DNA of 64,000 nucleotides from Candidatus Kaiserbacteria bacterium (GCA_016182485.1 JACPGH010000005.1:64305-128304); one strand, 5' to 3'. Positions 4,706 to 31,464 are shown, counted from the first letter of the stretch. Numbers and translations are program-made. The notes: generated by a model not told the origin, from the letters alone.

Positions 4706-4749
4706 AATCGCTCTTCTGAACCTCGAATTCGTTTCGAAACTCGGAACAG

Positions 4750-4788
4750 CGGGCGAAGTGATGGGCACGACGTGTCCATCACTTCGCC
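4750..4788. repeat. long perfect hairpin (partial repeat A plus palindrome B) between convergent xth and the XRE gene
   Basis: gggcgaagtgatgggcacgacgtgtccatcacttcgccc, about a 19 bp stem. Likely a bidirectional terminator or repeat element. Confidence 0.55.
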
Positions 4789-4799
4789 CAGTCAGCACT

Positions 4800-5192
4800 T
4801 CAGGAAGCATCGAAAGCCTTGATAGTCCTGATCACCCTCTCTCGAGCTTCCGCAGACAACTTCAACAAGAGATTGATCACCTCGGCTTCATTCACGCTTC
4901 TCGTCAGGGAAGGTCTGGATATACCTCTACTCTGGTTCAGACGATGTTCTTTCTCCCCGTTTAGCAGCATAACCTCGAGCTCCGCACTCTGTTTCGGGGA
5001 GAGTCGGTAGCCCCGTGTCAGGGCCGCAAGCTTTCTGTGCGTGGGGCGGTATTTCCCAGACTCTATTTGCGAGAGGCTCACGCGGTTCCGGATGCCGCCT
5101 TTTACTGAAGACATCCGTTCCAGCACCTCAGCTTGGGTCATCTGGTTTGCTTCTCGGATCTGTCTCAGGTGCGTGCCGATCTCATTCATCAA
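4800..5192 (-). CDS. XRE-family HTH transcriptional regulator
   Basis: HTH_XRE-like N-terminus (LRQIREANQMTQAEVLERM...LSQIESGK). Confidence 0.6.
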   Translation of the reverse strand: MMNEIGTHLRQIREANQMTQAEVLERMSSVKGGIRNRVSLSQIESGKYRPTHRKLAALTRGYRLSPKQSAELEVMLLNGEKEHRLNQSRGISRPSLTRSVNEAEVINLLLKLSAEARERVIRTIKAFDAS

Positions 5193-5246
5193 GATGCCTT
5201 CCTCCTCTACTCACAAGGTTCGCAAGGTCCCTTCCCGGTCTGTAAA

Positions 5247-5272
5247 GTGATGGACACGACGTGGTCCATCAC
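5247..5272. promoter_or_regulatory. palindrome B copy (GTGATGGACACGACGTGGTCCATCAC) ~55 bp upstream of the XRE gene start; candidate operator
   Basis: Inverted 11-mer half-sites. The same palindrome occurs at 4762-4786 and 31441-31464. Confidence 0.4.
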
Positions 5273-5418
5273 TCCTCAAAGTAACTAACAAATATATATG
5301 TATATATTTCCGACATCGTTCTCCTATCAGATATACATATAAAGATTAAATATAGCGTGCTATGCACTAACAAAAATATACTGTTGTCAGAATTTCCGAC
5401 ATATGATACTTTGACGAC

Positions 5419-6189
5419 ATGCTGGAGGAAGGACTGGCCAAAGCTGGCTTAAATGCCAAAGAAGCGGCGATTTATCTCGCCGCGCTTGAGTCGGGCCCCT
5501 CGAGCATTCTGCAACTCAGCCGGAAGACGGGTATCAAGCGGCCGACGATATACGAAATGATGCCCTCATTGCTCCGCTCCGGCGTCATAGCGCAAACAGC
5601 CAAGGGGAAGCGCAAGCAATTCGTGGCTGAGCCGCCCGAGAAGCTCTTTGAGGCCAAAAGGCAGGAGCTGAATTCCCTTCGCGAGCTCCTCCCTACTCTC
5701 GAAGCGTTCCGCAATGCGTCTATCGAAAAGCCGGATATTAAGTGGTTTCAGGGTATTGAAAACATCCAAGAAATTTTGTGGGACATGGTGAGCAACACGA
5801 GCGTGAAAGAGCAGCTGCTCGCAATTGAGGGCCAGTTCAACTCTATCTACCAAAAGCTTGGGGACGAATTCTTCCAGAAACTCTTGAGGGAGAAAGCCCG
5901 CCGTAATCTCGAATCGCTCACAATTTCGACCATGAGTCCGCAGGAGCTGGAGAAAACGGTCCGGGACGCTCCCTGGAGCGTCGGCCACCAGATCGAAGTC
6001 CGCCTTATCGAAGATGCGAATAATGACTTCAAACTCAATTTCTTCATATATCAGGATAAAGTAACGATAATTTCTGCCTTGCAGGAGGTAGCGCTAGTGA
6101 TTGAAAACAAGATCCTGTTCAACAGCCTCAAACTTCTCTTTATGACCCTCTGGAAAACAGCGCGAGAAACTCCCTATCGAATCTCGTAA
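5419..6189 (+). CDS. TrmB-like HTH transcriptional regulator (paralog 1)
   Basis: N-terminal wHTH (AAIYLAALESGPSSILQLSRKTGIKRPTIYEMM). Conserved C-terminal LFMTLWKTARE tail shared with five other ORFs here. Confidence 0.6.
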   Translation: MLEEGLAKAGLNAKEAAIYLAALESGPSSILQLSRKTGIKRPTIYEMMPSLLRSGVIAQTAKGKRKQFVAEPPEKLFEAKRQELNSLRELLPTLEAFRNASIEKPDIKWFQGIENIQEILWDMVSNTSVKEQLLAIEGQFNSIYQKLGDEFFQKLLREKARRNLESLTISTMSPQELEKTVRDAPWSVGHQIEVRLIEDANNDFKLNFFIYQDKVTIISALQEVALVIENKILFNSLKLLFMTLWKTARETPYRIS

Positions 6190-6196
6190 TTCGCGG

Positions 6197-6237
6197 CCCG
6201 ACCACTGCCCCGTTTCGATTGCTCTCTCATAAAACAA
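6197..6237. repeat. imperfect direct repeat of the xth 3' end (matches 4670-4710)
   Basis: ccgaccactgccccgtttcgattgctctctcataaaa vs ccgaccactgccctgtttctattgttctttcgtaaaa, about 36/41 identical. Confidence 0.6.
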
Positions 6238-6406
6238 AACCGCCGGATGTTATCCGACGGTTCAATGCGCAGAGCAGGGTTACAACTGTGGGGTAAGGCT
6301 CCCCTAAATACTCACCTGCTTTCTGGGCGCTGCGCCGCCCCGGTGACGCTCCATATGCCTCAAGCTCTCCGCCTTATTATTGAGGCACACCCGCCACCCG
6401 GCTGAA

Positions 6407-6625
6407 TCAGATCTTTTCGACAATCACAGTCGTCACGTAATAGACGTGACGCGCGATTCCTTGCATCATGCTGCGCTCGGTGCGATAGTCCCACGTTCCG
6501 TGGAGCGCCAAGCTCGTAGTCGCAGACACAATCCGCCAGCTGCTGCCAAGCTCCCGAAGACGCTTCTCAAGCTCTTCCTCAGGCGAATCGTTACGCGAAC
6601 CCACGATGATTACTTTCTGTTCCAT
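6407..6625 (-). CDS. hypothetical small protein
   Basis: ORF only (MEQKVIIVGSRND...). No confident family. Confidence 0.3.
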   Translation of the reverse strand: MEQKVIIVGSRNDSPEEELEKRLRELGSSWRIVSATTSLALHGTWDYRTERSMMQGIARHVYYVTTVIVEKI

Positions 6626-6638
6626 GTATGCCTCCTTT

Positions 6639-6800
6639 CTATTCGTAATCTTCATCGTGAGGAACGGGATCCGCTATCCTTTGGGAGGCAAATGGAAATT
6701 CCTTGCACTTTCGGCAATACAGATCTTTACAGTCATACTGGTTAATTGCGAAAGTGAGGCCACCGCCGCAATGTGGGCAACAAGCATCTCCTCGTCCCAT
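6639..6800 (-). CDS. hypothetical zinc-ribbon protein (CxxC...CxxC)
   Basis: MGRGDACCPHCGG...CRKCKE. The track ORF's N-terminal extension overlaps the repeat A copy, so the internal start is preferred. Confidence 0.3.
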   Translation of the reverse strand: MGRGDACCPHCGGGLTFAINQYDCKDLYCRKCKEFPFASQRIADPVPHDEDYE

Positions 6801-6869
6801 TAGACTCTCCTTATCCTGCCTCCCCTTTCGGATGAGGACTTTCGGCCAAAGAACATGAGCGAACATCTT

Positions 6870-6919
6870 CGCTCTTCTGAAAATCCAATTCGCATCAGAT
6901 TTTCGGAACAGCGGGCGAA
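6870..6919. repeat. repeat A copy (reverse orientation)
   Basis: Exact reverse complement of 21684-21733 (ttcgcccgctgttccgaaaatctgatgcgaattggattttcagaagagcg). Confidence 0.7.
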
Positions 6920-6922
6920 TTC

Positions 6923-7240
6923 TCATTCGCCCTTGCCTCCTTTCTCAAGTAGCGCTCTAACAACCTTGACGACCTCTTCAACCGGGTGGCACTCCAGAAA
7001 GTCGCGATACCCGGCGCTGATGAGTGGACCACGCCCTTTCCCATTGAGTTCGGCATTGACGTCAGAAATGTCGATCCCGATGAGTTGGAAGGCGCGCACC
7101 ACAGCCTCCGCATTCTCATATACGGCTCCGCAGTACTCGATTTCCCCTTTGAAGGAACTGACTGAACATCCCGTGCATCCTTGAACGGCATAGCCGAAGG
7201 CGAGGCGCAGAACAAAGAGTTTCTCCTCGATACTAAACAT
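6923..7240 (-). CDS. hypothetical protein
   Basis: ORF only. Confidence 0.3.
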   Translation of the reverse strand: MFSIEEKLFVLRLAFGYAVQGCTGCSVSSFKGEIEYCGAVYENAEAVVRAFQLIGIDISDVNAELNGKGRGPLISAGYRDFLECHPVEEVVKVVRALLEKGGKGE

Positions 7241-7418
7241 AGTGCCATTCTCCCAGTTCCTGCCTGCCCTTTCGGGTCAGGGCTTATGGGTTCAATGTTC
7301 AACGTCTCTGGCACCACAATAGCAGGCGCAACACCTTTTGTCAATATTGGTTATGACACAATTAAATGTCATTGGTGTTTGCATTACATAGGTATTTTGA
7401 TACGCTGTCATATATCCT

Positions 7419-8192
7419 ATGACAGGCAGATCCGTGACAGAAGAACAGCCATTGATTAACCGCCTTGCGGAATGGGGGCTGACGCGGGCGGAGGCCGAAG
7501 TGTATGTCTATTTGCTCCAGCGGCCGACCGAGAGCGGCGGGTCGAAGATCGCCGTGGGGACCGGCCTACACCGGCAGTATGTCTATATCGCCCTAGAGAA
7601 GCTCCTTGCTGCAGGCCTCGTTGAGGCAATTCCATTCGGCAAGCATAAAAAGTACAGAGCCCGCTCCCCGCTCGAGATCGAGAAGATCACGCGCAAGAGG
7701 AGTGTGGCGGCAAGCGACCTGGTGCACGAATTGAATAAGATAAGCGCCATTCATAGCGAACAGGACTTCGAAGTGCTGCAGGGCGCAAATCAAATCCAGC
7801 AATATGAGATGGACTATGTCTATGGATGTACGGAGGGAGAAGAGGAGCTCATTATCGGCGGGCATTCCAAAGGTTTTTTCGACCTAATGGGCGATGGTCT
7901 AGAGGAATATATAGAGGAGAAAGAGCGTAAAGGCATAAAAGTACAATATATTGGCAGCTTGAGCGAGAAGCCGCTCTACGAGCTAAACATTAGCTCGTAC
8001 GGAAATCAGAATTATCGCTATTTAGAGGGGATGCACGAAGGAGTAACGCACTTGGTGATCCGGAAAGATTCAGTTTCCTTTTGGAGTTTTCTCACTCCCC
8101 CGCTGGTCTATGTGATCAAGTCTGCGACTGTGGCAGATGACTACCGGAAATTTTTCCAGCTGCTTTGGGATATCGCCGGCAAACAGGGCTAA
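7419..8192 (+). CDS. TrmB-like HTH transcriptional regulator (paralog 2)
   Basis: wHTH (AEVYVYLLQRPTESGGSKIAVGTGLHRQYVYIALEKL) plus family C-terminal tail (FFQLLWDIAGKQG). Confidence 0.6.
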   Translation: MTGRSVTEEQPLINRLAEWGLTRAEAEVYVYLLQRPTESGGSKIAVGTGLHRQYVYIALEKLLAAGLVEAIPFGKHKKYRARSPLEIEKITRKRSVAASDLVHELNKISAIHSEQDFEVLQGANQIQQYEMDYVYGCTEGEEELIIGGHSKGFFDLMGDGLEEYIEEKERKGIKVQYIGSLSEKPLYELNISSYGNQNYRYLEGMHEGVTHLVIRKDSVSFWSFLTPPLVYVIKSATVADDYRKFFQLLWDIAGKQG

Positions 8193-8249
8193 AGGACATC
8201 CTTCAACCCGCTCGGGATGAGTTTTCCACAGGGATGTCCTTTACAATGT

Positions 8250-8560
8250 CTTTTATCATTCTAAACTTGGCTAAGGAGGAGGCGGTGTGCGGCTAGGCTC
8301 AGGACCGGCTCCATTGGATGTTCTTTAGGAGTTCTTTTAACATCAGACGCTCTGTGAGTAACCTGCCTGCGCCAGCGGCGATCCGCTAACACTACCGGGC
8401 ACGGGACCCGAACGGAAGCGCAATAGTGCTTTTGACAAAAGCCACCCACCATTTCTCCGACTGAGGCACCATCATTTACGCCCCGCTCCTTTTACGCCGC
8501 AGTCACCCGCTGGGTGGCTTTGTTGTTTACTCTGAGCTTTAGTGAAGGAAGCGAACTGGC
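8250..8560. ncRNA. candidate structured ncRNA (unidentified; weak SRP-RNA-like GGAAGC motif)
   Basis: About 350 nt with no credible ORF between a terminator-like hairpin at 8196-8252 and the palindromic repeats. Hairpins include gccacccacc...gggtggc. No family confirmed. Confidence 0.2.
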
Positions 8561-8610
8561 CTTCCTATTTAAACTAAGAATGTTTCGCGTGAACCATATA
8601 TGCGTCCAAG

Positions 8611-8721
8611 TTGTGAAGGTCTGACCTTCACAACTTAATGAAAGCAAATTACATTCGATATATTCGCATGATTTACAAGATATATCGGACTGTGAAGGTC
8701 TGACCTTCACAAGTTAATGAA
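8611..8721. repeat. two direct copies of a 23 bp palindrome, TTGTGAAGGTCTGACCTTCACAA(C/G)TTAATGAA, about 80 bp apart
   Basis: Copies at 8611-8642 and 8690-8721, downstream of cca. Confidence 0.65.
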
Positions 8722-8760
8722 GTTGCTTTTAACTCCCATTATCTATTGAAATCAATCGAT

Positions 8761-10269
8761 TTAGCACACGTGGTGTTTTTCCATTATTTGGCGTACTTCC
8801 TCATTTTCGGCGGCTTCCCGCCTTTTCTTCCCCGCTTCCCCAAGCCTCTTGAGTTCATTCTCGTCCAGCATTAACAGTTCTTCGGTTCTCTTATCTAGAT
8901 AGTCATGCACGTTTCGCGCGGAATCGTCCAAGACTTCTTCGAGCAGTGCATTCAGGACATATCCTATCCTAGGCCCCGGTTTCGCGTGGAACTTCTCCAT
9001 TATCCTGGTGCCATCTGTCTTCAGCATCTTCACAGAGATAGGATCTCGAAGAGCCTGTTCCACCATAGCTTTGTACTTCCTGAATCTAAAAGGCTGTTCC
9101 TTAGGCCGTCCCGTCCCAATCCGGTCGCATATACGGAGGTTAAGCAAGTCCCAAATATTTTCCTGTCCAACATTCGTAACCATTCTGCGTACGGCCGATA
9201 ACGTTATCTGATCAGGATCAGAAAAGAACATGTGCCACCGGACAAGCTTTACTACCTTGTCTATTGTTTCGCGTGGAAAGTGCAGCTCCTCTAGAGCTTT
9301 TTTGGTTACACGTGAACCAACCACGTCGTGTCCATGAAAGGTCCAGTCTTTTTTTTCGTCGGACCATCGGCGGCTCTCGGGCTTCGCTATGTCATGGAAG
9401 AGCCCGGCAATCGTAACGTCGAAGCCGAAGCGCTTATCCGCCCCGTGCTGCATTGTACGGAGATTGTGCTCAAAGACATCGTAGCTATGCGCCTGGTTTT
9501 GCTCGACGCCAATACCTCGCACTAAATCGCCGACTATGAATTCGAGAATGCCGAGCTGGTGGGCGAGCACGAGCGCATTCATCGGCTTCTTTGACTCTAG
9601 AATACGCACAAGCTCATCTCGAATCCTCTCGCGCGAAATTTGGCTTAAATGCTGACTGTTTTGCTTAATGGCAGCGGCCGTGTCGCTCTCTATGCCGAAG
9701 TCGAGCTCAGCCACAAGCCGCACGGCCCGGAGCATTCGCAGGGCGTCCTCATCAAAGCGTTCTCCGGCGTTCCCGACGGCTCGTATTATCTTGTCCTTTA
9801 TGTCCTTTTGACCATCATACGGGTCCACTATTTGTCCTTTATCTGCATCGAGAGCGATGGCATTTATCGTAAAGTCACGCCGGGCAAGGTCTTGGAGAAG
9901 GGAAGTGCCAAATTCGACCTTGTCCGGCCGACGCTTGTCGGAATAGCCGGATTCGGTGCGGTAAGGTGTCACCTCGACTATTGCCAGCCGCTCGTCCTCT
10001 GAACCGGTCTTCACGCCCACCGTGCCGTATTCATTTTCATAAAAAGAATCAGGAAATACGGCCTGGATTTGCTCCGGGGTAGCGTTCGTGGTGAGGTCCC
10101 AGTCCTTCGGCTCGCGGCCGAGGATAAGGTCGCGGACACAGCCGCCCACCAAATACGCTTCAAATCCCTTTTCATGAAGGGAGTTCGATACCCGAGAAAT
10201 CTCTTCCGGGATAGGGAAGCGCATATCCACAATGCTAGCATAGCGTGCTAACTTAGATTCGAGGAACAT
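8761..10269 (-). CDS. cca: CCA-adding enzyme (tRNA nucleotidyltransferase with HD domain)
   Basis: GGCVRDLILGR...DWD head motif plus C-terminal HD domain (LFHDIAKP). The start at MFLESK (10269) is chosen because the upstream ORF extension translates across a tRNA. Confidence 0.8.
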   Translation of the reverse strand: MFLESKLARYASIVDMRFPIPEEISRVSNSLHEKGFEAYLVGGCVRDLILGREPKDWDLTTNATPEQIQAVFPDSFYENEYGTVGVKTGSEDERLAIVEVTPYRTESGYSDKRRPDKVEFGTSLLQDLARRDFTINAIALDADKGQIVDPYDGQKDIKDKIIRAVGNAGERFDEDALRMLRAVRLVAELDFGIESDTAAAIKQNSQHLSQISRERIRDELVRILESKKPMNALVLAHQLGILEFIVGDLVRGIGVEQNQAHSYDVFEHNLRTMQHGADKRFGFDVTIAGLFHDIAKPESRRWSDEKKDWTFHGHDVVGSRVTKKALEELHFPRETIDKVVKLVRWHMFFSDPDQITLSAVRRMVTNVGQENIWDLLNLRICDRIGTGRPKEQPFRFRKYKAMVEQALRDPISVKMLKTDGTRIMEKFHAKPGPRIGYVLNALLEEVLDDSARNVHDYLDKRTEELLMLDENELKRLGEAGKKRREAAENEEVRQIMEKHHVC

Positions 10270-10334
10270 TGTGGTTCCTCTCTTCGTCCCGGTATCGTTC
10301 AAGCAAATACCGGAGCTCGCTCGGCGAACTCTTC

Positions 10335-10406
10335 GCCCCGGTGGTGAAATGGATATCACAGCTGACTTCGGATCAGCTATTCTGGGTTCGAATCCTGGCC
10401 GGGGCA
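10335..10406 (+). tRNA. tRNA-Arg (anticodon TCG)
   Basis: Hand-folded 72 nt cloverleaf: acceptor GCCCCGG/CCGGGGC, D arm GTGA/TCAC, anticodon stem GCTGA/TCAGC with loop CTTCGGA, T loop TTCGAAT. No encoded CCA. Confidence 0.7.
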
Positions 10407-10454
10407 CATTGCGAAAGGCGGCCTCAGAGAGGCCGCCCTGTGAGATGCGCGGAA

Positions 10455-10667: not shown

Positions 10668-10669
10668 AG

Positions 10670-10888: not shown

Positions 10889-11012
10889 TTCGCCCTCCTC
10901 TCGTGTACTTGCCCCAAATTGGAATATAAAAACTGTAAATAATTTAGCAAGGAAGCGGGCATATTTCTATGGAAATTGTACTTTTCGTTCAAAATCCATT
11001 ATTCTATCTGCA

Positions 11013-16984: not shown

Positions 16985-17809
16985 TCAGCGTGCCGATTCT
17001 TTATTACCCTCCACCTCTGCAATAATCCCTCGTAAAATCTCGTTCGCATCTATGACGCGCGAATGATCCTGCATGAATTTGAGGAACGAGAGCAGCATCT
17101 TTTGGATTTCAGAATTGCGGATCTCAATAACCAGCTCTTCTCCGAGGGCCATCAGGTAGATGGATTGTTTAAAAATGAAGACCTGGCTGGCATGGTTAAA
17201 ATATTCGCCTTCTACCACACCCACTCTCGTCGTGCGGCCTTCGAAATCCCTCGCCCACGAGACTCCCAATTCTCTCGCCATTCTTTCAAGCTCCCCGTCT
17301 TGGAATATTGACTCGGCAATGATGTTGTTTTTCTTCAGCGCACGATTGAAACGGTTCGTCTCCTGAAGAGAGAACGTTTTATTCCAATTTACAGCCGCAC
17401 TATCGCCAACGAGAGAATAGAATCTCTCATTCTTGTGCGCAAAGAGCAGTTCGCCCAGCACCTTTCGAATCGAGTCCTGGCCGCGATGAATGATGACCGT
17501 GGCATCCGAAAGGCCGTGCACCTCCTCAGTCCCTTCCGGAATCTTTAGAAGCGTCCGCTTAGCCGCATACAGCACCCCCTCGATATCTCGCTCGGGGGCG
17601 AGCCGCCACATTTTCTTGCCGCTCGTAATATGAGACTCAGCCAAACCGCGCTTTTTCAGATTGTAGAGAATCGCGTAGGCCGCCGTGCGAGACACTCTCG
17701 TTGCACGCGCCAATAAAAGAGGCGTATCAACACCACTCTGGAGGGCAGTGAGTATCTTTTCTTCTTTCTTTGAGAGTCCAAGTAGCTTGAGGGTTTCAGA
17801 AGCGGGCAT
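16985..17809 (-). CDS. TrmB-like HTH transcriptional regulator (paralog 4)
   Basis: wHTH (EEKILTALQSGVDTPLLLARATRVSRTAAYAILYNLKKRGL). Divergent from the peptide/radical-SAM operon. Confidence 0.6.
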   Translation of the reverse strand: MPASETLKLLGLSKKEEKILTALQSGVDTPLLLARATRVSRTAAYAILYNLKKRGLAESHITSGKKMWRLAPERDIEGVLYAAKRTLLKIPEGTEEVHGLSDATVIIHRGQDSIRKVLGELLFAHKNERFYSLVGDSAAVNWNKTFSLQETNRFNRALKKNNIIAESIFQDGELERMARELGVSWARDFEGRTTRVGVVEGEYFNHASQVFIFKQSIYLMALGEELVIEIRNSEIQKMLLSFLKFMQDHSRVIDANEILRGIIAEVEGNKESAR

Positions 17810-17991: not shown

Positions 17992-18063
17992 ATGCCGACG
18001 GCCAACTCGGGTTCCGCCGGGAAGAGCCGCAAGGCTCTGCCGGCCAAGCGCCCCTCCAAGTAG
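17992..18063 (+). CDS. 23-aa peptide MPTANSGSAGKSRKALPAKRPSK (candidate precursor peptide 1)
   Basis: SD GGAGGTG 8 nt upstream. Near-identical to the peptide 100 bp downstream. Confidence 0.5.
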   Translation: MPTANSGSAGKSRKALPAKRPSK

Positions 18064-18166: not shown

Positions 18167-18238
18167 ATGGCCACAGCCAACGCCGGTTCCGCTGGCAAGA
18201 GCCGCAAGGCTCTGCCGGCAAGACGCCCCTCCAAGTAG
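18167..18238 (+). CDS. 23-aa peptide MATANAGSAGKSRKALPARRPSK (candidate precursor peptide 2)
   Basis: SD AAAGGAGGTG upstream. The alternative start at 18161 gives MSMATAN.... Confidence 0.5.
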   Translation: MATANAGSAGKSRKALPARRPSK

Positions 18239-18244
18239 GAGACG

Positions 18245-18275
18245 GGCGGAAGCGGGGACTTGTCCCCGCTTCTTT
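18245..18275 (+). terminator. hairpin plus T-tract (partial terminator/attenuator) between the peptide genes and the radical-SAM gene
   Basis: ggaagcggggacttgtccccgcttctttgtt. Confidence 0.4.
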
Positions 18276-18297
18276 GTTATCAACCCAGACTGCTACT

Positions 18298-19656
18298 ATG
18301 GAGAGGACAATGGAAGGCCAACCGAAGCAGAAACTCGAGAGCCAAGAAGCGCTGTCAGAACTGACGTTGCAGACCGAGCTGCGCGAGAGCGGGGAGTACG
18401 CCTACGCCCCGTCCGCATCGCACTGGTACTGGAACATGGTGGACGGCAAGCCGTTCAGCGACACGCAGAAAGCGGAGCTTCTCCTGGCGCAAAAAGACGA
18501 GCTTCCGTATCTGGTCTCCGCCTTGTTGGAGAGGACCTGCAATCTCCGCTGCGCGCACTGCATCTACCAAGACGAGCAGAGCAGCAGGAAGGCGTCGGAG
18601 GAAGGCCAGCTAGCGGCGGTCGTCGAGCACATAATCCGTACGATGCCGCAAGGCCCCGCAGAGCAGAGGGCCAAGTTCATGTCCGCCGGCAGAATCCTGC
18701 GGCCGTGGCACCTCGACATCTTCAAGAAACTTCGCGAGAGCCGGCCGGACGTGCAGCTTGGCGTCATCGACAACGGCACGTACACGAAACTGTTGCGCAC
18801 ATGGCCAGAAGGATTGCAACTGGACTGGCTCGACATCTCTGTGGACGGCACCGAGGCGAACCATGACAAGCAGAGAGGGGAGTCCTCATACGCCGCGGCT
18901 ATGGAGGGACTGCGGCATGCGCGCGAAATCACTCGCTCTCGTGAAGAGGGCGGATATGTGGCATCGCTGCTGACGCTCACCAACATCAACGCGGGCGACG
19001 TCTTGCAAGTAGCCAATACTCTTCTCAATGAGAAGGCCGGCGAACCGCTGGCAGACAAGCTGAACCTCACGACCATGGGGCCGACCAACGCGATCAATGC
19101 GCGCCTCGAGATAAGTCAGCTCGACTTCGCGCAGGCGTGGGACGGACTCAAAGAGGCGTGTGCGAAATACAACACGCCAGGCAACGAGCGTGTCTCGCTC
19201 GGCCTGTACCGCGTCGAGGACGTGGAGAAGCTCGCCGCAGTGGTCGGAGAAGGGAAATTCTTAGAGTCCTTTCCAGCCGACGAGGACAAGGCGCGCGAGC
19301 GGGTCACGTTCCGAGGCAACTTCGTCGAAACGCATGTCGACGGCGTGCCCGTCTCCTACCTGCCCATCTCGATCTGGCCGCCTGAAGAATTCTTGATCGA
19401 TGCGGATGGGGCATACCGCCTCGCCTACGAAGGCCAGTTCACGCTCGAGGAGCTGCGTGCGGGCTCACAAGAAAGCTGGGACGGCCACAGCGCGCGCGAC
19501 TACACCGTCACGCAGCTCACGCCAGAGACGGACTTCCGCGCTGTGTACGAGCAAGCCGTGGATATCTACTGGCAACGCTTCGGCCACGCAAAGCTCGATC
19601 AGGAATTCGCCGCGTTCGCGCGAATACGCGAAAAGGCCCGACAAGAGGGCAGGTAA
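18298..19656 (+). CDS. radical SAM enzyme (CX3CX2C; no obvious SPASM cysteines)
   Basis: LLERTCNLRCAHCIYQ radical-SAM cluster motif at about residue 85. Only one other Cys, so a SPASM/twitch domain is unlikely. Start could be 18298 or 18310 (SD GGAGAGG). Confidence 0.7.
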   Translation: MERTMEGQPKQKLESQEALSELTLQTELRESGEYAYAPSASHWYWNMVDGKPFSDTQKAELLLAQKDELPYLVSALLERTCNLRCAHCIYQDEQSSRKASEEGQLAAVVEHIIRTMPQGPAEQRAKFMSAGRILRPWHLDIFKKLRESRPDVQLGVIDNGTYTKLLRTWPEGLQLDWLDISVDGTEANHDKQRGESSYAAAMEGLRHAREITRSREEGGYVASLLTLTNINAGDVLQVANTLLNEKAGEPLADKLNLTTMGPTNAINARLEISQLDFAQAWDGLKEACAKYNTPGNERVSLGLYRVEDVEKLAAVVGEGKFLESFPADEDKARERVTFRGNFVETHVDGVPVSYLPISIWPPEEFLIDADGAYRLAYEGQFTLEELRAGSQESWDGHSARDYTVTQLTPETDFRAVYEQAVDIYWQRFGHAKLDQEFAAFARIREKARQEGR

Positions 19657-20201: not shown

Positions 20202-20984
20202 TTAAGCATCGAGCGTCATCCACTGGAGCGCGAAGATGCTTTTCAGCGTTCGGGCGATGCCGGCGCTCTCAATAATGAGCCCGAGCTGGTCCTGAAAGGA
20301 CATGATGCCGATTCTGTCCGGCCCGTAGAGATTGACCTCGACCAAGAGAGGGAATTGTTCCGGGTCGATGAGTTTGGTGGTGCGTAAGGACTTGTTATCT
20401 ATGCCCTTATAGTCCCGGATTATCGGCAGATCCGGCGCGATCGCTTCTACCCAGATCTTTTTCTCCAGCCGCTTCGGCACATAGTATTCATCGAGAAATT
20501 TCTGATCGAATTTATGGATCATTTCTTCCGAAACCCACGTCTGCATCTTTTGATCCGGAAAGCGGAGCGTGTCTTTGTACACGTCTTTAATTCCTTCGAT
20601 GCCTTCGAAATAGCGAATGCGCGGCTTTTTCTTCAGCGTGTTCGTGATGGAGAGCAATTCAGGCAAAATCTTCTCGATCGAAGATTTCTTTTCGTCGAGC
20701 AATTCGACTATTTTCCGCGGGTCCTCCGCTATGTATATGATTTTCTTTTGTCTTTTGGCCGTACTCACGAGTCCGGAACGCTTGAGCGATTCCACGGTGT
20801 CATAAAGGGTCGTCCGTTTCAGCTTAGACTTCTTCACGAGCTGGCCCATGTGAGCCTCGCCAAGCTCGAGGAGAGCCAGGTAGGCCGCAGCCTCCTTGTC
20901 GTCGAGCCCGGTGCCTTTCAAATCAGAAATCGTCATGGTTTTGGTATAAGTGTCGTCCTTTAGGTCAACTTTTACATCATACAC
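20202..20984 (-). CDS. TrmB-like HTH transcriptional regulator (paralog 5)
   Basis: wHTH (KEAAAYLALLELGEAHMGQLVKKSKLKRTTLYDTVESLKRSGL) plus the family C-terminus. Start may be the internal M (20936). Confidence 0.6.
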   Translation of the reverse strand: MYDVKVDLKDDTYTKTMTISDLKGTGLDDKEAAAYLALLELGEAHMGQLVKKSKLKRTTLYDTVESLKRSGLVSTAKRQKKIIYIAEDPRKIVELLDEKKSSIEKILPELLSITNTLKKKPRIRYFEGIEGIKDVYKDTLRFPDQKMQTWVSEEMIHKFDQKFLDEYYVPKRLEKKIWVEAIAPDLPIIRDYKGIDNKSLRTTKLIDPEQFPLLVEVNLYGPDRIGIMSFQDQLGLIIESAGIARTLKSIFALQWMTLDA

Positions 20985-21132: not shown

Positions 21133-21633
21133 ATGGCAATGAAGATCCTGGTGATTGATGACAAGATCGCGAATCAGGAGTCCGCCCGCACCACGCTCGC
21201 GGGACACGACCTGACAGTTCTCGGCACTACCGTCGAGGCCGGAGCCCTGTTCAGCAAGTACAGCAAAGTGAAGTTCGACTTCGACGTCGTGCTGACCGAC
21301 CTCATGATGCCGGTCGATCACAAGGGCTACGCCGGCCAGTCCACGCCCTTCGGGCCTGACGGCACGGCGGTCGACCCTGCGTCCTGCGTCGGCGAAAAGC
21401 CCGTCGGGCTCGGGTTCGCTCTGCTCGCTGCCAAGAAAGGCGCGAAGTTCGTCGCCGTGGTGACGGGTATCGGCCATCACTCCGACCCGATCGTCGCCCA
21501 GTTCGATTTCTTCGGATACGGAGAAAGCACGATTCGCGTGGAGGACGCGAAGGTGATGCTCGTCAACGGTGGCGGCACATCCGAGCACGTGAAGGACTGG
21601 GGAGCGGTCTTAGAAGCGCTCATTAAGAAGTAG
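21133..21633 (+). CDS. CheY-like receiver-domain protein (single-domain response regulator, atypical C-terminus)
   Basis: MKILVIDD...DVVLTDLMMP receiver signature. The overlapping minus-strand ORF 20977-21588 is judged spurious. Confidence 0.6.
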   Translation: MAMKILVIDDKIANQESARTTLAGHDLTVLGTTVEAGALFSKYSKVKFDFDVVLTDLMMPVDHKGYAGQSTPFGPDGTAVDPASCVGEKPVGLGFALLAAKKGAKFVAVVTGIGHHSDPIVAQFDFFGYGESTIRVEDAKVMLVNGGGTSEHVKDWGAVLEALIKK

Positions 21634-21667: not shown

Positions 21668-21733
21668 GGGCGAAGTGCAATGCTTCGCCCGCTGTTCCGA
21701 AAATCTGATGCGAATTGGATTTTCAGAAGAGCG
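21668..21733. repeat. hairpin (gggcgaagtgcaatgcttcgccc) plus repeat A copy (21684-21733)
   Basis: 50 bp identical to the reverse complement of 6870-6919. About 150 bp upstream of the NYN gene. Confidence 0.7.
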
Positions 21734-21881: not shown

Positions 21882-22550
21882 ATGAGAGAAACCGAACGTG
21901 TCGAGATTCTCATCGACGCAGGGAACTTCTATCATCTTGCGCTTAAGAAACTTGGCGTCGCGGAAATAGATTTCGATTATGAGGCCTTTGTTTCTTTTCT
22001 CATGAACGGCCGCACGCTCGTCCCTGAAGGGAAGCGATTATATGTCGGTACCGTACGCGAAAAAGAAGGCGATTTGAGGACGAAGAACGCGATGGCCGAA
22101 CAGCGCCGGTTCTTGTCAGTGCTCCTATCGGCGAAATGGCAGATAAAGACCAGCAAACTCCGATCGCGCATTGAAGAGATAGCTGTTGATTCGCGCATGC
22201 AGGAGTACAAAACTCTGACTGCCGCGGGTGTTCAAACGATTCACGTTGAACGCATGCGCGAAAAGGGTATCGATGTGAAAATCGCGACTGATCTCATCGT
22301 CGGAGCAGTAGACGATAAATATGATACTGCAATTGTCATCAGTTCAGATACCGATTTAGTTCCCGCCATTGACTGGGTTCGGATGCGAAAGAAGAAACGC
22401 GCCGAGTACGTAGGATTTTCAATTCCCGATGCTCGCGGCAACGCCTATGCGTCGAAGCCGACGTTTGCGCTCATCGCGCGGACGGATGTCCAGCGCATCC
22501 TAGTTGAATCGGACATACGGCGTTTTATTAAGCAAAAACTCATGCCATAG
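21882..22550 (+). CDS. NYN-domain (LabA/DUF88-like) protein, second copy
   Basis: IDAGNFYH...GIDVKIATDLIVGAVDDKYDTAIVISSDTDLVPAI. Confidence 0.65.
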   Translation: MRETERVEILIDAGNFYHLALKKLGVAEIDFDYEAFVSFLMNGRTLVPEGKRLYVGTVREKEGDLRTKNAMAEQRRFLSVLLSAKWQIKTSKLRSRIEEIAVDSRMQEYKTLTAAGVQTIHVERMREKGIDVKIATDLIVGAVDDKYDTAIVISSDTDLVPAIDWVRMRKKKRAEYVGFSIPDARGNAYASKPTFALIARTDVQRILVESDIRRFIKQKLMP

Positions 22551-22557
22551 CGCAACG

Positions 22558-22607
22558 CTTCGCCCGCTGTTCTGAGAACCGATCGAGTTCGGGATTCAGA
22601 AGAGCGG
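22558..22607. repeat. diverged repeat A copy immediately after the NYN gene stop
   Basis: cttcgcccgctgttctgagaaccgatcgagttcgggattcagaagagcgg. Same orientation as 21684-21733. Confidence 0.6.
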
Positions 22608-22824
22608 AACACGAAACAGAAGAGCCGCGACAGGGTCGCGGCTCTTGAAGCAAGCATCGCCTGGCATGCCGGCGGGATGAGGGGATTCCTAGTCGACCCC
22701 GGAGAAGAACTGCCAGATGGGCGCACAGCGCGCCCGCCAGGTATAGAGGTGAATGACCGCGTCAACCAACGCTGCGCATGCGACGAGTGCGAGCAGAGCA
22801 TGGAGCCTCGTCATAGCCGCCTAC

Positions 22825-24359: not shown

Positions 24360-24386
24360 GTTGGCTAGAGCCTAGCACCTAACTGG

Positions 24387-26699: not shown

Positions 26700-26791
26700 A
26701 CGCCCGTTTCAATTATCCGCCGCGCCGGCACGGGCGCGGAGGTCAAGAATCAATAAATTCCCCGAACAGCTCCGACTGTAGCACAAAATTA

Positions 26792-27391
26792 TTATTTATA
26801 CACTTGGTCCACCAAGCCGTACTTCTTCGCTTCTTCTGCGGTCATGAAGAAGTCGCGCTCGACGTCTTTTTCTATCTTCTCGAACGGCTGACCGGTATTC
26901 TTCGCGAGAATTTGGTTCAAGCGCTCGCGCAGCTTCACGATCTGCTTCGCGGTGATCTCGATATCGGTCGCTTGACCTTCGGCGCCGCCGTGCGGCTGAT
27001 GGATCATCACCTCGGCATTCGGGAGCGCGAAGCGCTTGCCCTTCTCCCCGGCAGAAAGGAGGATCGCCGCGCCCGAAGCCGCCATGCCCACGCACACAGT
27101 CGAAACCGGCGGTTTGACATGATTCATGGTATCCACCATCGCGAGCGTAGAGGTCACCGACCCGCCCGGCGAGTTGATGTAGAGATAAATGTCCTTCTTC
27201 GGATCCTCCGCTTCAAGAAACAGGAGCTGGGCAATGACCAGATTCGCCGTATCGTCGTCGATCGGCCCGCCGAGAAATACGATGCGCTCCTTAAGGAGGC
27301 GGGAGTAGATGTCGTAGGCGCGCTCGCCGAACTGGCTCTTCTCGACGACCATCGGCACGAGCATGGAAGCACGCGGTGATGTGGTTTTCAT
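26792..27391 (-). CDS. clpP: ATP-dependent Clp protease proteolytic subunit
   Basis: INSPGGSVT...[10 protein letters not shown]...MIHQP catalytic Ser/His/Asp context. Confidence 0.9.
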
Positions 27392-27433
27392 AATATTAGT
27401 ACGCTACCTAAAACCCCGCAATAAATCAAATTC

Positions 27434-27730
27434 CTAAGGGGTAAACCCGGCAGGAATTTGATTTTGCTCCGCGATCCGCTTGCCCCATGTGTAGAAGGCG
27501 CCGATGATGATCATGAGCATAATGACGATTATGGAGAGCACGGCGCCCCACGATTGCCGCTTGGATGAGGGTACGCCCGGTGCCAAATCTGATTTGGCAC
27601 CGGGCATTGCGGGCGTCGTGGTTTTCATGGGTGCAGAAACGGAAACTGGAGCTGAGGGAGCCTGAGGGAGCGCGTCTTCCGTCATCGAGACGCGCAACTC
27701 TTCTTCGGGTTTGAGGAGGAACGATGCCAT
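27434..27730 (-). CDS. hypothetical small membrane protein
   Basis: C-terminal TM helix. Confidence 0.3.
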   Translation of the reverse strand: MASFLLKPEEELRVSMTEDALPQAPSAPVSVSAPMKTTTPAMPGAKSDLAPGVPSSKRQSWGAVLSIIVIMLMIIIGAFYTWGKRIAEQNQIPAGFTP

Positions 27731-27790
27731 GGCATAAGTATAGCAAACCCCGCCTGTTCCTAAGAACAGGCGGGGTGCTTTTTTCAGAAA

Positions 27791-28309
27791 TTATTTGCCC
27801 GATTTCTCTTGATACATATTGTGCGCCCGGTCAAAAGCCGCTTCCGCTTTGCCGCCGAAGCCGGTCACTTCAACAACCTTGTTCTGAAGATTTTTGTACG
27901 TCTTGTAGAAATGCTCCACTTCTTTGAGCGTATGCTTATTGACGTCCTTTAGGTCCTGCACCTCCTTCCATCGAGGGTCATCAACCGGCACCCCGATAAC
28001 CTTATCGTCGGCATCGCCGCCGTCGATCATGTGCATGATGGCGACCGGTCGGACGCGCACCAAGATTCCCGGCGCAAGCGGATAAGTCGTAAGTACGATG
28101 ACGTCGAGCGCGTCGCCGTCATCCCACAATGTTTGCGGCACGAAGCCGTAATCGACGGGGAATTGCTGGGTAGTATAAGAAACTCGATCTAGCGCGATGA
28201 GGCCCGTTTTCTTGTCAATTTCGTACTTATTCATCGAGCCTTTCGGGATCTCGACGATAACGCTCATTTCTTCTTTCGTGCCCGGCTCAATATCGTGCAG
28301 TAAATTCAT
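27791..28309 (-). CDS. ppa: inorganic pyrophosphatase
   Basis: Family I PPase motifs (DYGFVPQT..DGDALDVIVL). Confidence 0.9.
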   Translation of the reverse strand: MNLLHDIEPGTKEEMSVIVEIPKGSMNKYEIDKKTGLIALDRVSYTTQQFPVDYGFVPQTLWDDGDALDVIVLTTYPLAPGILVRVRPVAIMHMIDGGDADDKVIGVPVDDPRWKEVQDLKDVNKHTLKEVEHFYKTYKNLQNKVVEVTGFGGKAEAAFDRAHNMYQEKSGK

Positions 28310-28319
28310 ATGAAAATAA

Positions 28320-29262
28320 AATAGCAGACTGAGGCGCTAGGCGCTACTCGCCTCGCTGAAGTCCGGCGAAGCGGGAGCTTTAGCAGTAATGCAAATCCTC
28401 AATCAACCAACGAGACCCTCGCGGGCTGAACAGAGGAGCAAACGCACGGAACCATCCGGCGTTTGTCCAACCGATTAACCAAAGAACAAAAAGAACTGCT
28501 TGCCCGTCGCGCGAAGCGCGAGCAGGGCTGGAGCCCATTTACGGCTGGGCTCCCCGCACCGGTGTCGCCGCTTAACGGCAGGCGACACGTGCCGTCCACT
28601 TGATTTCTATTTCGTCAGCCGGCAAGTGAATAAACCCGGCTCCTGACTCCCCGCGGATAAGCGGGAAGATACCCTTAGCCCGGCCTGCCCTGAACTTGTC
28701 GAAGGGCAAAGGGCGTCGGGGTATGTCGCCGTCGCATGCGCTTCGTCCCTAGCGTGTTCGCGCTATAGGCGGGACGTCGCCGCACGCGCGGGCGGATGTG
28801 CACTGCAACGGGCTCGCTTAGAGCCCGCTCCACGGATTTTTCATCCGTGCACCTCCTTTCTCGCCGATTTAACCCTCGGGCGCGGGGTTCGCCGCGACGC
28901 GAACTACTTCTTCGCGCGCCTTCAGGGAATCGCTCACCCTTCTTCGCTTTTGAGCTACGAAGGGCGCAGTGCGATCCCTCGTACCGTACCGATCCATACA
29001 ACAAGTAAAGAGGTTTAACCTCTTTACTTCGTCGCGGATGCAGTCCGGCAACGAGGAACAACATTGCAGTAGCCGCTCCGCCCGCTGGCGGACGCGACGA
29101 TTGTTCTGCCTTGTCCCTGGCTACCTATGGGTTCTGTCAGAGAACCACTGGCTTGCTAACACCCTAGCATACTCTGTCTACTTTGTCAAGTAGTTTTTGA
29201 GACCGCAACATGCGCTACTTGAGATAAGCAGCAAATAAGCCAAATTATCGGGCAGGCAGCAG
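28320..29262. other. about 0.95 kb GC-rich ORF-poor region; candidate large structured ncRNA(s), unidentified
   Basis: No credible ORF; the track ORFs here are Arg-rich low-complexity. Many stable hairpins. Contains hairpin C (29003-29029) and is bounded by a CTAG repeat at 29263-29300. Confidence 0.25.
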
Positions 29263-29301
29263 GAGCTAGATTCTAGCAGTCACCTAGCGCCTAGAGCCTA
29301 G

Positions 29302-30711
29302 TTAATCGTCCTTCGCTTTGTCGCGGTCTTCTTCTTTGTCGGCGACGGTCTCGTCGCTCGCGGGAAGCTCGGTCAGTTCTTCTTCGGCAGGCAGGGCGGT
29401 TATCTCGGACGAGTCGTCAGTGATTATTTCAGAGGCTTCAGTAGGCATCGCGCCCATTGCTACAGCGGGCTCTTCGCCGGTACTTCCTGCGTCAGTACTT
29501 CCTGTGTCAGCATCTTCGACACCTTCGGTACTTACGGCACTTCCTGCGTCAGCACTGACAGCTTCGCCGCCGCCAGCCGAAACGATATCGATGTTCCAGC
29601 CGGTCAGCTTCGCGGCCAGCCGCACATTCTGCCCGCCGCGGCCGATGGCGGGCGACTGCTCGTCTTCGGTGACCGTAACCTTTGCGCGGTGGTCGGCCTC
29701 GTCTAGCGCGACCTCGAGCGGCTTGGCGGGGGAGAGCGCTTGCCGCACGAATTCGCGCGCGTCGGAATTCCACTCGATGATGTCGATGCGCTCGCCGCCA
29801 AGCTCGCTCATGACTATCGAGACGCGCACGCCGCGCTGGCCGACGAGCGACCCGACCGGGTCGACGTGCGTATCGAGCGAGACGAGGGCGATCTTCGTGC
29901 GGCTGCCAGGCTCGCGCGCGATAGCTTTCACTTCGATCGCGCCCGAAGCCAATTCCGGCGCTTCAAGTTCGAAAAGTTTAATGACAAATTTCGGATGCGC
30001 GCGCGAGAGCCGCAGATAGACGCCGCGGAAACCTTCGTCCACCGAGTACAAATAAGCACGGATGCGCTCGCCGATACGGTAGCGCTCGCCCGGGATCTGT
30101 TCTTCATAGGGGATAATACCGGTCGTGCGCCCGAGATCCACGAAAATCGCCCCGCGCTCCATGCGTTGGACGATCCCGGATACGATCTGACCCTTCTTCT
30201 CGCTGAATTCTTCCATCATTGATAGCTTTTCAGCCTCGCGGACTTTCTGGATGACGACCTGCTTGGCCGTCTGCGCCGCAATGCGGCCGAAATCGTCCTG
30301 CGGCTCTAGCGGGAAGATGATCTCTTCGCCCACTTGCGCGCCGCGCTTGATGAGCCGCGCGTCGGCGAGCAGGATGTGCTTCTCGGGGTCGAAGCGCGGC
30401 AATTCGCCCTCCTGCAGTTCTTCCTCATGCTCGTAACGGCTGGCTTCGAGTTTCTGGTTTCTGGTTTCTGGTTCACCGGCTTCCGAAGCAAATCGCACGG
30501 TCGTTTCGTCGACGACGGTCTTCACCTGCTCGAAGGCGATAGTGCCCGTGTTGAGATCGAGCTTGGCGCGCACTACCTGCCCGCGCTTGCCGTATTCGCG
30601 CTTATAGGCAGTCGCCATCGCCGCCTCGATAGCTTCTATCATCGTTTCTTTGCTGATGCCCCGGTCCTCGAACTCGCCGAGTACTGCGTGGATTGTTTTT
30701 AGGTCAATCAT
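29302..30711 (-). CDS. nusA: transcription termination/antitermination factor NusA
   Basis: N-terminal domain, S1 and KH domains, acidic C-terminal tail. Confidence 0.9.
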
Positions 30712-30823
30712 GGTCGCTATGGATTATGTATGTACTTACAGCACTAAATCTCTTTGATAACGAAAGCCCCGCCGGGGCTTTCAGATGCGCCAATGCTACC
30801 AAAAGCGCTCTGTCCGCGCAACT

Positions 30824-31012
30824 TCATTCGAATAGCTGCGCATGTGACCCTGTATCTACAAACACAATGATGCGTCCGCCGCGTATCTCATACATCAGCA
30901 ATAAATCGTCTTTAATATGGCATTCGCGATAGCCAGCAAATTCACCCGAAAGAGCATGGTCTCGATACTTTTCCGGCAGAATCTTACCGGAACACAGGTA
31001 TTCTGTTACCAA
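30824..31012 (-). CDS. YafQ/RelE-family toxin (annotated from a TTG; homology extends about 25 codons upstream into the antitoxin 3' end with no canonical start)
   Basis: ILPEKYRDHALSGEFAGYRECHIKDDLLLMY matches the YafQ core. The upstream in-frame FNRSFRKLKK matches the YafQ N-terminus. Confidence 0.5.
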   Translation of the reverse strand: MVTEYLCSGKILPEKYRDHALSGEFAGYRECHIKDDLLLMYEIRGGRIIVFVDTGSHAQLFE

Positions 31013-31056
31013 CTTAAAGTCATATGCGAGGTTGGAGGTAAGCCTTCCAGATTTTT

Positions 31057-31338
31057 TCAGTTTCCGGAATGAGCGGTTGAAAATATGCCGAGATCCTTGA
31101 AAAGTTCTTTGGTGCTGGTGTACTTCTTACCGTTCTTGATAGCATCGGCGACCTCGCGGTCCCATTTTGCCCGCAATGCGGCAGGATTCTTGGTGGGCAT
31201 AAAGGGCAGGCCTTGCTCCGTCACCACCTGATTCAAGAAAAGCTTCACGCCACTAGATAAGTCCAGCCCAACTCCTTCGAGCGCCTTCTTGGCGGCCTTC
31301 TTGGTTTTTTCTTCAATTCTGACATTCAACGTAGTCAT
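31057..31338 (-). CDS. DinJ/RelB-family antitoxin
   Basis: LNVRIEEKTKKAAKKALEGVGLDLSSGVKLFL..V..QGLPF matches the DinJ pattern. Confidence 0.65.
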   Translation of the reverse strand: MTTLNVRIEEKTKKAAKKALEGVGLDLSSGVKLFLNQVVTEQGLPFMPTKNPAALRAKWDREVADAIKNGKKYTSTKELFKDLGIFSTAHSGN

Positions 31339-31440
31339 GCGCCTATGATATACAATGTGCGCTCATCGTCAATACACACTGAAACGCGACGCTACTTTGA
31401 GCGTCCACGCGATCGTGCGGACATGCACCAGGCTGCCACA

Positions 31441-31464
31441 GTGATGGACACGTCGTGTCCATCA
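31441..31464. promoter_or_regulatory. palindrome B copy (GTGATGGACACGTCGTGTCCATCA) ~100 bp upstream of dinJ; candidate operator
   Basis: Perfect inverted repeat shared with the XRE locus. Confidence 0.4.

Follow-up and report, generated by a model that had tools for sequence, protein, structure and literature searches.

Palindrome B and double hairpin A' in a Candidatus Kaiserbacteria genome: dispersed hairpin-forming repeats or operator of an XRE-family regulator?

Introduction

Among described systems, the repetitive extragenic palindromic (REP) sequences and bacterial interspersed mosaic elements (BIME) of Enterobacteria and Pseudomonas, with their REP-associated tyrosine transposases (RAYT), are nearest in function and architecture to two repeats, palindrome B and double hairpin A', that we analyzed in a Candidatus Kaiserbacteria metagenome-assembled genome (MAG) (GCA_016182485.1). 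The repeats were studied in a stretch of 64,000 nucleotides (JACPGH010000005.1:64305-128304; referred to here as the window), and the analysis as a whole covered 71.5 kb of the source genome. REP/BIME are, like B and A', imperfect extragenic palindromes of 20 to 40 nt that often lie just past stop codons, and they form mosaics of different units (here, B inside A'). REPs are transcribed into mRNA 3' ends, where they stabilize the upstream RNA. B and A' differ from them in having no GTAG-type head, longer and nearly perfect arms, coding-sequence copies in relatives, and no RAYT among the window proteins scanned.

Two further groups of elements are the nearest counterparts of the copies in coding sequence. 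The Rickettsia palindromic elements (RPE), reportedly described by Ogata et al. in 2000, are palindromic repeats in the reduced genome of a host-dependent bacterium. Two features reported below resemble them, an insertion of another palindrome family in comEC and the presence of B in a variable loop of tgt in relatives; however, RPEs are 100 to 150 bp long, compared with 23 to 40 nt here, and B was seen in coding sequence only in other genomes (a loop replacement in tgt and a copy in rseP). The second group is found in organelles and comprises the double-hairpin elements and GC clusters of fungal mitochondria, the coding palindromes of Nematomorpha mitochondrial DNA (PMC6649704), and the organelle palindromes of Volvox (PMC2670323). 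These elements are short, form one or two hairpins, and occupy intergenic or variable parts of genes, as B and A' do, and they include perfect inverted repeats embedded in coding sequence like those of the window. They differ in belonging to organelle genomes, and they have no sequence relationship to B or A'. Our search of the literature on palindromic repeats in the candidate phyla radiation (CPR)/Patescibacteria found these organelle analogues and nothing directly relevant.

An initial annotation of the window had proposed that B is an operator shared by an XRE-family regulator gene and the dinJ-yafQ toxin-antitoxin module. Our preferred reading, which we regard as an evenly balanced judgment, is that B and A' are dispersed hairpin-forming repeats of the REP/BIME or RPE type and not a regulon-specific operator. 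This reading is based on their positions at gene 3' ends, their stable folds, the identity of two distant A' copies, the excess of palindromes in the window, the insertion of a sister family in a conserved gene, the occurrence of B elsewhere, its absence from the locus of the single XRE homologue, and the separate promoter of dinJ.

Results

Palindrome B is present in three copies in the window, compared with none expected by chance. The unit consists of two arms of 10 to 12 nt, TGATGGACAC and GTGTCCATCA, around a variable 3-nt center (GAC/GTC, GCC, or CAG in the copies seen), and a comparison of the window copies with copies elsewhere showed that the arms usually extend to AGTGATGGACACG. Copy B1 (positions 4757 to 4783; AGTGATGGGCACGACGTGTCCATCACT) has one arm mismatch (G.T on the plus strand, A.C on the minus strand) and sits between convergent genes, at the XRE 3' end, in the loop of the first hairpin (H1) of an A' copy. 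Copy B2 (5246 to 5273) lies in the divergent intergenic region between the XRE gene and a TrmB-family gene, 56 nt from the XRE ATG (5189) and 145 nt from the TrmB ATG. Its right arm contains a 1-nt insertion (an extra G), which makes it invisible to a mismatch-only search. In copy B3 (31440 to 31465), the outermost pair is broken (the copy ends in ...TCAA); it is located 17 nt past the stop codon (31483 to 31485) of a hypothetical gene on its upstream side, and 101 nt separate it from the dinJ ATG downstream (31338). The initial annotation had described a perfect 24-bp palindrome occurring three times. There are indeed three nonrandom copies, but all are imperfect, and the coordinates given for them were correct for B2 and B3 but off by 4 to 5 nt for B1; the distances of B2 and B3 to the XRE gene and dinJ were confirmed.

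Only B2 is promoter proximal, and the other two copies (B1 and B3) are at gene 3' ends. B shares one feature with REP-type elements, being a short imperfect palindrome that is extragenic and often found at gene 3' ends. A hairpin also fits B better than a binding site for a helix-turn-helix (HTH) dimer, since all 12 to 13 arm positions are complementary and the promoter-proximal copy carries an indel.

Repeat A, previously noted as a family of about 50 bp, was recovered as such, with four copies at 4709 to 4756 and 6870 to 6919 on the plus strand and at 21684 to 21733 and about 22558 to 22606 on the minus strand. The second and third copies are 100% identical over 50 nt, although they are inverted relative to each other and 14.7 kb apart. 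Read on the opposite strand, all four copies become A', a double hairpin of about 65 nt (H1 plus H2). H1 (GGGCGAAG-loop-CTTCGCCC) is present in every copy. Its loops are GAGA, GUGCAAU, and CGCAACG in three copies, whereas in the fourth the loop is occupied by B1, which stretches the stem from 8 to 19 pairs. The adjoining H2 has a conserved base (GCUGUUCYGA...UCAGAAGAGC) and an apex that takes three different sequences among the four copies, all of them paired. RNA folding of the A' regions, scored as z against shuffles, gave -33.6 to -56.1 kcal/mol (z = -4.6 to -5.9), with -47.7 kcal/mol (z = -5.9) for the 101-nt region of A'1.

All four A' copies are at stop codons or no more than 34 nt from one. 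A'1 (4709 to 4789, minus strand; H1 at 4789 to 4751, holding B1, and H2 at 4750 to 4709) lies 10 nt past the XRE stop (4800 to 4802) and 3 nt past the stop of the convergent Exo_endo_phos gene (3911 to 4705). In A'2 (6870 to 6932, minus strand), the stop codon of a 105-amino-acid (aa) gene (6923 to 7240, minus strand) falls inside H1. A'3 (21668 to 21733, plus strand), the H2 of which is identical to that of A'2, is 34 nt past the stop of a receiver-domain-like gene (21133 to 21633). In A'4 (22543 to 22606, plus strand), the 5' arm of H1 is degenerate and consists of the last codons and TAG stop of an NYN gene (21882 to 22550); a 12-bp hairpin farther downstream (22620 to 22646) is unrelated to A'. 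At both unambiguous tandem-gene contexts, A' is in the mRNA sense, and the other two copies are between convergent genes.

The structure at 4751 to 4789 that had been called a composite is B nested in the H1 loop of a single A' copy. The hairpin described there, 3' of the XRE gene and with a 19-bp stem, does exist at 4751 to 4789, but its 19-nt arms contain one mismatch. It had also been said to contain the 5' part of A, which was not borne out: the outer-stem GGGCGAAG around B1 is the 3' end of A on the plus strand. A mismatch-tolerant search with both conserved A' cores found no additional copies in the window or in any retrieved locus, and the viral contigs scanned gave zero matches to A or B. 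In an Rfam scan of the window, only tRNAs reached the gathering score, and A and B gave nothing beyond subthreshold chance matches at lax thresholds. We also rejected two known classes of element for A'. It is not a miniature inverted-repeat transposable element (MITE), as its ends (GGGCGAAG... and ...CAGAAGAGCG) are not inverted repeats of each other and there is no flanking duplication. Integron attC sites were discarded as well, given that A' has no RYYYAAC/GTTRRRY pair and forms no single array and that the nearby recombinase gene is in housekeeping XerC synteny.

To look for B outside the window, we scanned GTDB representative genomes and JGI metagenomes, in one pass each, using a pattern built to match B1, B2, and B3; neither collection includes the source genome. 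The pattern occurred at seven independent loci. Five of these are partial matches in unrelated phyla, mostly in coding sequence, and the remaining two extend to the full palindrome, both inside coding sequence: one in tgt of a Paceibacterota/Kaiserbacteria-like MAG (L004, the same as L012; peptide KFDGHDVSIT) and one on a contig whose gene content is CPR-like, in an rseP-like gene (L010; peptide RDGHGVSIT). By a rough estimate, the probability that two of seven matches extend by at least 4 extra bases by chance is roughly 3 in 10,000. In Tgt, B falls within a hypervariable loop that has GKTISKF on one side and VYDEDVASQHGQ on the other and that reads TKEDAPLEEAVA in most of 120 homologues; B replaces the variable loop (13 aa versus 12 aa) rather than adding 9 codons. 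A second tgt gene with 77% DNA identity has kept both B arms at 100%, synonymous positions included; the only difference in B between the two genes is the center (GAC versus CAG). No XRE homologue was detected in the genomes with B in tgt or rseP. Judging from these matches, B, with its arm sequence fixed, evidently exists where neither genome nor context is linked to the XRE gene. The initial annotation had named abundance outside promoters, as in a REP- or MITE-like element, as what would speak against an operator, and this is largely what we found: two of three copies at 3' ends, the arms in the coding sequence of other genomes, and a window rich in palindromes.

The tgt genes of Kaiserbacteria additionally have palindromic inserts of another kind, which encode PTSDVG and occupy two sites, namely, in the variable loop near aa 125 to 135 and near aa 346 to 373, the latter presumably in the C-terminal zinc-motif region. 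The cases are L004 7747 to 7789, a perfect palindrome with a 20-bp stem in tgt, and the Tgt homologues P0002, P0004, P0007, P0020, P0049, P0054, P0071, P0078, and P0101.

The palindrome excess became clear in a census of perfect hairpins (loops of 3 to 8 nt) in comparison with dinucleotide shuffles of the window. Stems of at least 8 bp numbered 48 (mean of 8.7 in the shuffles), those of at least 10 bp numbered 22 (mean of 0.65), and those of at least 12 bp numbered 15 in 64 kb (0 in the shuffles). About two-thirds of the 22 hairpins are intergenic, mostly 5 to 50 nt from a gene end. Most of the hairpins with at least 12 bp (e.g., at 3184, 8608, 15699, 19673, 22620, 24332, 27747, 29003, 32580, 42793, 47173, and 60329) also lie within 5 to 50 nt of gene ends and have no U-tracts, and they may be transcript-end signals of this lineage. 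Some hairpins form repeated families (29003/60330, 8608/8691, AGGCKCT heptamer blocks, and CCCCGTTGGAAATC-N3-GATTTCCAACGGGG). The last family has three copies (44206 to 44244, 54988 to 55026, and 55333 to 55371), all in coding sequence, with one in comEC and two in the gene of a 434-aa hypothetical protein. All share one frame, encoding (S/G)PV(G/T)(N/D)xISNGA(S/G). The comEC copy of this family (CCCCGTTGG...) is a clean 33-nt insertion of exactly 11 codons in frame, and it is absent from the 21 closest homologues among the matches listed; the ComEC of the window has 582 aa, compared with about 500 to 545 aa in 120 relatives.

The AGGCKCT blocks (e.g., TTAGGCGCTAGGCTCTAGGCGCTAGC) are intergenic, at 1727 to 1753/1794 to 1818, 24365 to 24382, 28332 to 28351, 38111 to 38137/38157 to 38174, and 49639 to 49665/50492 to 50517. 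They are often inverted pairs 20 to 45 nt apart, and one pair is about 830 nt apart around a stretch without a predicted gene. The idea of a DNA uptake sequence was rejected, as no dominant 8- to 12-mer was found.

Taken further, Kaiserbacteria may carry several mobile, near-perfect palindrome families (B, CCCCGTTGGAAATC, and PTSDVG in tgt) that a sequence-specific enzyme would move within genomes and from one genome to another and that would enter conserved genes (comEC, tgt, and rseP) in frame. This would amount to an RPE-like invasion of ultrasmall genomes, and the XRE regulator may have adopted one such palindrome as its operator. We put this idea forward only tentatively. An alternative explanation involves no mobility; in it, the hairpins are ordinary local transcript-end structures or arose by in situ "palindromization" (template switching) and the B copies are local duplicates. 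Such an origin would account for the unique sequences of most intergenic hairpins and for perfect stems of 12 to 15 bp in conserved, noninserted coding sequence, which we found in recJ (41213 to 41239), a class A penicillin-binding protein (PBP) gene (61841 to 61871), and comEC (44346 to 44381). These stems encode conserved peptide, e.g., ARATGRSYAAGRA and PRAAERLAAA, and were perfected by codon choice; the notion that all hairpins in coding sequence are insertions is therefore false, and not every palindrome here is a mobile element. Palindrome-perfecting mutation, or selection for mRNA or DNA hairpins, may operate alongside insertion. As a full explanation, however, a purely local origin is improbable, because B stretches of 23 to 28 nt recur without change in contexts that have nothing in common, both at a distance of 26 kb in the window and in other genomes, because A'2 and A'3 are identical despite their distance, and because the CCCCGTTGG family made a clean insertion in comEC.

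Next, we considered whether B serves the XRE regulator. The XRE-family gene (4800 to 5189, minus strand; 129 aa; HTH_31; NCBI accession no. MBI2409857.1) is bracketed by B1 and B2. It is divergent from the TrmB-family regulator gene (5419 to 6189, plus strand), and in the 229-bp spacer between them, B2 is preceded by an AT-rich promoter zone and followed by the Shine-Dalgarno sequence of XRE. If B were the XRE operator, a dimer on B2 would repress its own gene, B1 would be a second site, and B3 would be either a regulon site or nonfunctional; B1, at the XRE 3' end and 489 bp from B2, would have to act by looping or as a roadblock. We consider this possible but doubtful. It can coexist with a dispersed repeat if the regulator adopted a resident palindrome.

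The best evidence for such an operator comes from a relative. A k-mer search found no XRE homologue, and a sequence search of the PDB gave zero matches. An exhaustive HMMER pass over 1.84 billion representative proteins yielded a single homologue (P0242; 49% identity). Its contig (L023/L024; GC content of 45%) is syntenic with the window: S15, NYN, and XerC are followed by TrmB, 56% identical to the window TrmB, divergent from XRE. There, two copies of a dyad other than B (17 to 21 bp) stand on either side of a canonical TTGACA-17-TACAAT promoter. The first (ATAGCTACCT-A-AGGAAGCTAT) precedes the -35 hexamer, and the second, a degenerate one, lies between the -10 hexamer and the Shine-Dalgarno sequence. 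Neither B nor A' occurs in this 10.8-kb locus. The presumed recognition-helix region of XRE differs between the two loci (IRNRVSLSQ versus IRHHVTITQ), whereas the helix of TrmB is almost unchanged and both spacers have two TTTCCGACAT motifs. The palindromes therefore covary with XRE and not with TrmB. This covariation is the best argument that XRE orthologues could autoregulate via a promoter dyad, of which B2 would be this genome's version. The comparison of relatives proposed in the initial annotation did reveal dyads at the promoter of the orthologue, but they are unrelated in sequence to B. The position of B2, the promoter dyad of the syntenic orthologue, and the differing recognition helix make the suggested XRE autoregulation plausible for B2, but B1 is at no promoter.

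Several observations argue against the XRE operator. No sigma-70-like promoter was detected next to B2 in our promoter scan. The alignment of the two TrmB/XRE spacers is ambiguous, scoring only 2.3 standard deviations above shuffles, and in one register B2 is a 28-nt insertion beside a conserved GGGAAGG block. The 1-nt indel of B2 would put its half-sites out of phase, and arm complementarity at all 12 to 13 positions exceeds what an HTH dimer needs. The orthologue has both of its sites at the promoter and an unrelated 12-bp hairpin at the XRE 3' end (14 nt past the stop), whereas here there is no second promoter-flanking site; what the two genomes share at this 3' end is the position of a hairpin, irrespective of its sequence. 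Finally, the genomes with B in tgt and rseP yielded no XRE homologue. Compared with known XRE-family operators (phage 434/lambda cI-Cro, SinR, and ClgR), B2 is similar in being a dyad near the regulator's own promoter. However, the classical operators are 14 to 20 bp long, have nonconserved inner bases, and overlap the -35/-10 hexamers, whereas B is 25 to 27 bp long and fully self-complementary, with two of three copies at 3' ends.

The TTTCCGACAT motif (ATGTCGGAAA on the other strand) occurs twice per TrmB/XRE spacer (5308 to 5318 and 5392 to 5402 in the window; 3813 to 3822 and 3913 to 3922 in L023), and one copy adjoins the -10-like hexamer of TrmB. A AAATATATAT palindrome is also common to the spacers of both genomes. 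Both are candidate TrmB operator or promoter elements. Four TrmB-family paralogues lie within 16 kb (5419 to 6189, 7419 to 8192, 16985 to 17809, and 20202 to 20984).

The proposal that B couples the XRE gene to dinJ-yafQ draws on the near identity of the B copies and on the location of B3 in the intergenic space upstream of dinJ. dinJ, encoding a RelB/DinJ-type antitoxin (31057 to 31338, minus strand), has a promoter-like sequence, TTGACG-16-TATCAT (31345 to 31372, minus strand), that ends 6 nt before the ATG in a leaderless layout; a leaderless layout is also suggested for TrmB. The center of B3 is about 115 nt upstream of the dinJ ATG/transcription start site, its distance upstream of the -35 hexamer is 68 nt, and B3 directly follows the stop codon of the hypothetical gene on its 5' side (31483 to 32424, minus strand; 214 aa in the public gene call). 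As the dinJ promoter abuts the ATG and B3 follows the upstream stop, the position of B3 is a poor one for controlling dinJ-yafQ. Closer to the dinJ promoter, in the interval that separates it from B3, are two smaller dyads, and the locus of the XRE orthologue has no link to a toxin-antitoxin module. For DinJ-type antitoxins, autoregulation at their own promoter is the norm. We conclude that a shared operator is very unlikely, and this part of the initial annotation was not upheld.

The listed yafQ toxin open reading frame (ORF) covers 30824 to 31012 (minus strand). Its frame (30824 to 31100, minus strand) extends beyond the listed TTG by about 30 open codons on the upstream side, overlapping the end of dinJ, but this upstream part contains no ATG, GTG, or TTG start, and public gene calls skip yafQ. 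The frame may represent a toxin gene with a noncanonical start or a decaying toxin gene.

Lastly, the layout of B resembles that of a recombination site. With arms of 10 bp and a spacer of 7 to 8 bp, B could be built as the core site of a tyrosine recombinase, similar to lox or dif-type sites, in which case the XRE gene between the directly oriented B1 and B2 would be an excisable cassette and B3 a solo site. By their center base, B1 and B2 share the same polarity and B3 has the opposite one, and a XerC-like recombinase gene (2196 to 3134) lies 1.6 kb away. We nonetheless regard this as a far-fetched explanation. The XRE-TrmB pair is syntenic in a relative lacking B, so XRE is not a recent cassette; in addition, the spacer is almost symmetric, the strain-level contigs include no strain without the cassette, and B is found inside essential genes elsewhere. 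The XerC-like gene belongs to a conserved S15-NYN-XerC synteny, as expected of a housekeeping Xer recombinase. A dif/Xer site in the strict sense, which is a single 28-bp site near the terminus with arms of 11 bp and a spacer of 6 bp, was rejected, as there are three B copies and they are 25 to 52 kb from dnaA/dnaN and the GC-skew minimum, i.e., on the origin side.

Near the XerC-like gene, the window and Logan contigs L001/L020 differ by a 24-nt insertion/deletion polymorphism (3165 to 3181). The additional bases repeat part of an adjacent hairpin (3184 to 3209), namely, of the left arm of its 11-bp stem; this hairpin is located between the convergent XerC-like and PIG-L genes.

Three other features of the region were recorded. 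Two tandem, near-identical small ORFs (17992 to 18063 and about 18167 to 18238; MPTANSGSAGKSRKALPAKRPSK and ...MATANAGSAGKSRKALPARRPSK) lie inside an 82-nt direct repeat; next come a 10-bp hairpin and the gene of a radical SAM enzyme (18274 to 19656), a layout that resembles the precursors plus maturase of ribosomally synthesized and posttranslationally modified peptides (RiPPs). The genes yidC, dnaA, and dnaN (about 56000 to 59900) are at the cumulative GC-skew minimum, and the replication origin is therefore probably in the window. Past the window end (64000), strains differ (L014 to L017) in having hicB alone or hicA plus hicB, beside yebC.

Discussion

If B and A' are dispersed repeats, they would have spread by a copy-and-insert or gene-conversion process with a sequence-specific component, and we count the identity of A'2 and A'3 over 50 nt as recent copying. 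Copies would persist where a hairpin is tolerated or useful, which is just 3' of stop codons and, for B in related genomes, in variable protein loops; B2 would have arrived in the XRE 5' region as one such copy. Transcribed into mRNA, B and A' would form very stable 3'-terminal stem-loops. These would mark the ends of transcription units or separate such units from one another, and they would bar the way of 3'-to-5' exonucleases, which is also what REP elements do.

A number of observations weigh against this reading. The window proteins scanned include no transposase, RAYT, or other mobilizing enzyme. All strain-level contigs agree at A and B, with no empty-site/filled-site polymorphism, and the Logan contigs that cover the XRE, dinJ, and window-end genes (99.2 to 100% identical) show no polymorphism in A or B. 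The counts, three copies of B and four of A', cover no more than 71.5 kb of the source genome. Three facts fit a link between B and XRE: the location of B2 is a divergent promoter region instead of a 3' end, the XRE gene has one of the three B copies on either side (B1 and B2) within 0.5 kb, and the XRE orthologue has promoter palindromes of its own. The strict conservation of the arms across genomes points to a sequence-specific partner. The perfect hairpins within recJ, the PBP gene, and comEC (44346 to 44381) encode conserved peptide. Finally, there is no U-tract after B1, B3, or the A' hairpins.

Without U-tracts, the B and A' hairpins are not canonical intrinsic terminators, and a scan for terminator-like sites found none at B1, B2, B3, or A'1. 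Even so, B1, B3, and A' resemble intrinsic terminators, including the "I-shaped" type without U-tracts (Actinobacteria), in being GC-rich stem-loops 10 to 35 nt from a stop codon, and between convergent genes a terminator-type stem-loop would work both ways. They differ in their far longer stems and in the repetition of their sequences at distant loci.

Perfect palindromes exceed the chance expectation by a factor of more than 20 in this DNA, and finding a long one near a regulator gene therefore says little about an operator in these genomes; motif-based regulon calls in CPR bacteria need to account for the palindrome background. Of greater interest is the wider pattern, namely, that perfect palindromes are abundant and that palindromes are inserted in frame in CPR genes, for which our literature search turned up no paper. 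CPR genomes are regarded as streamlined and repeat poor. Several dispersed hairpin families, at least one of them in frame in a conserved gene, would change this picture. The finding also bears on how transcripts end in organisms with uncharacterized terminators. If true, it would imply an active process that spreads or perfects palindromes in a lineage with reduced DNA repair, and it would provide a concrete source of the lineage-specific loop insertions in CPR proteins.

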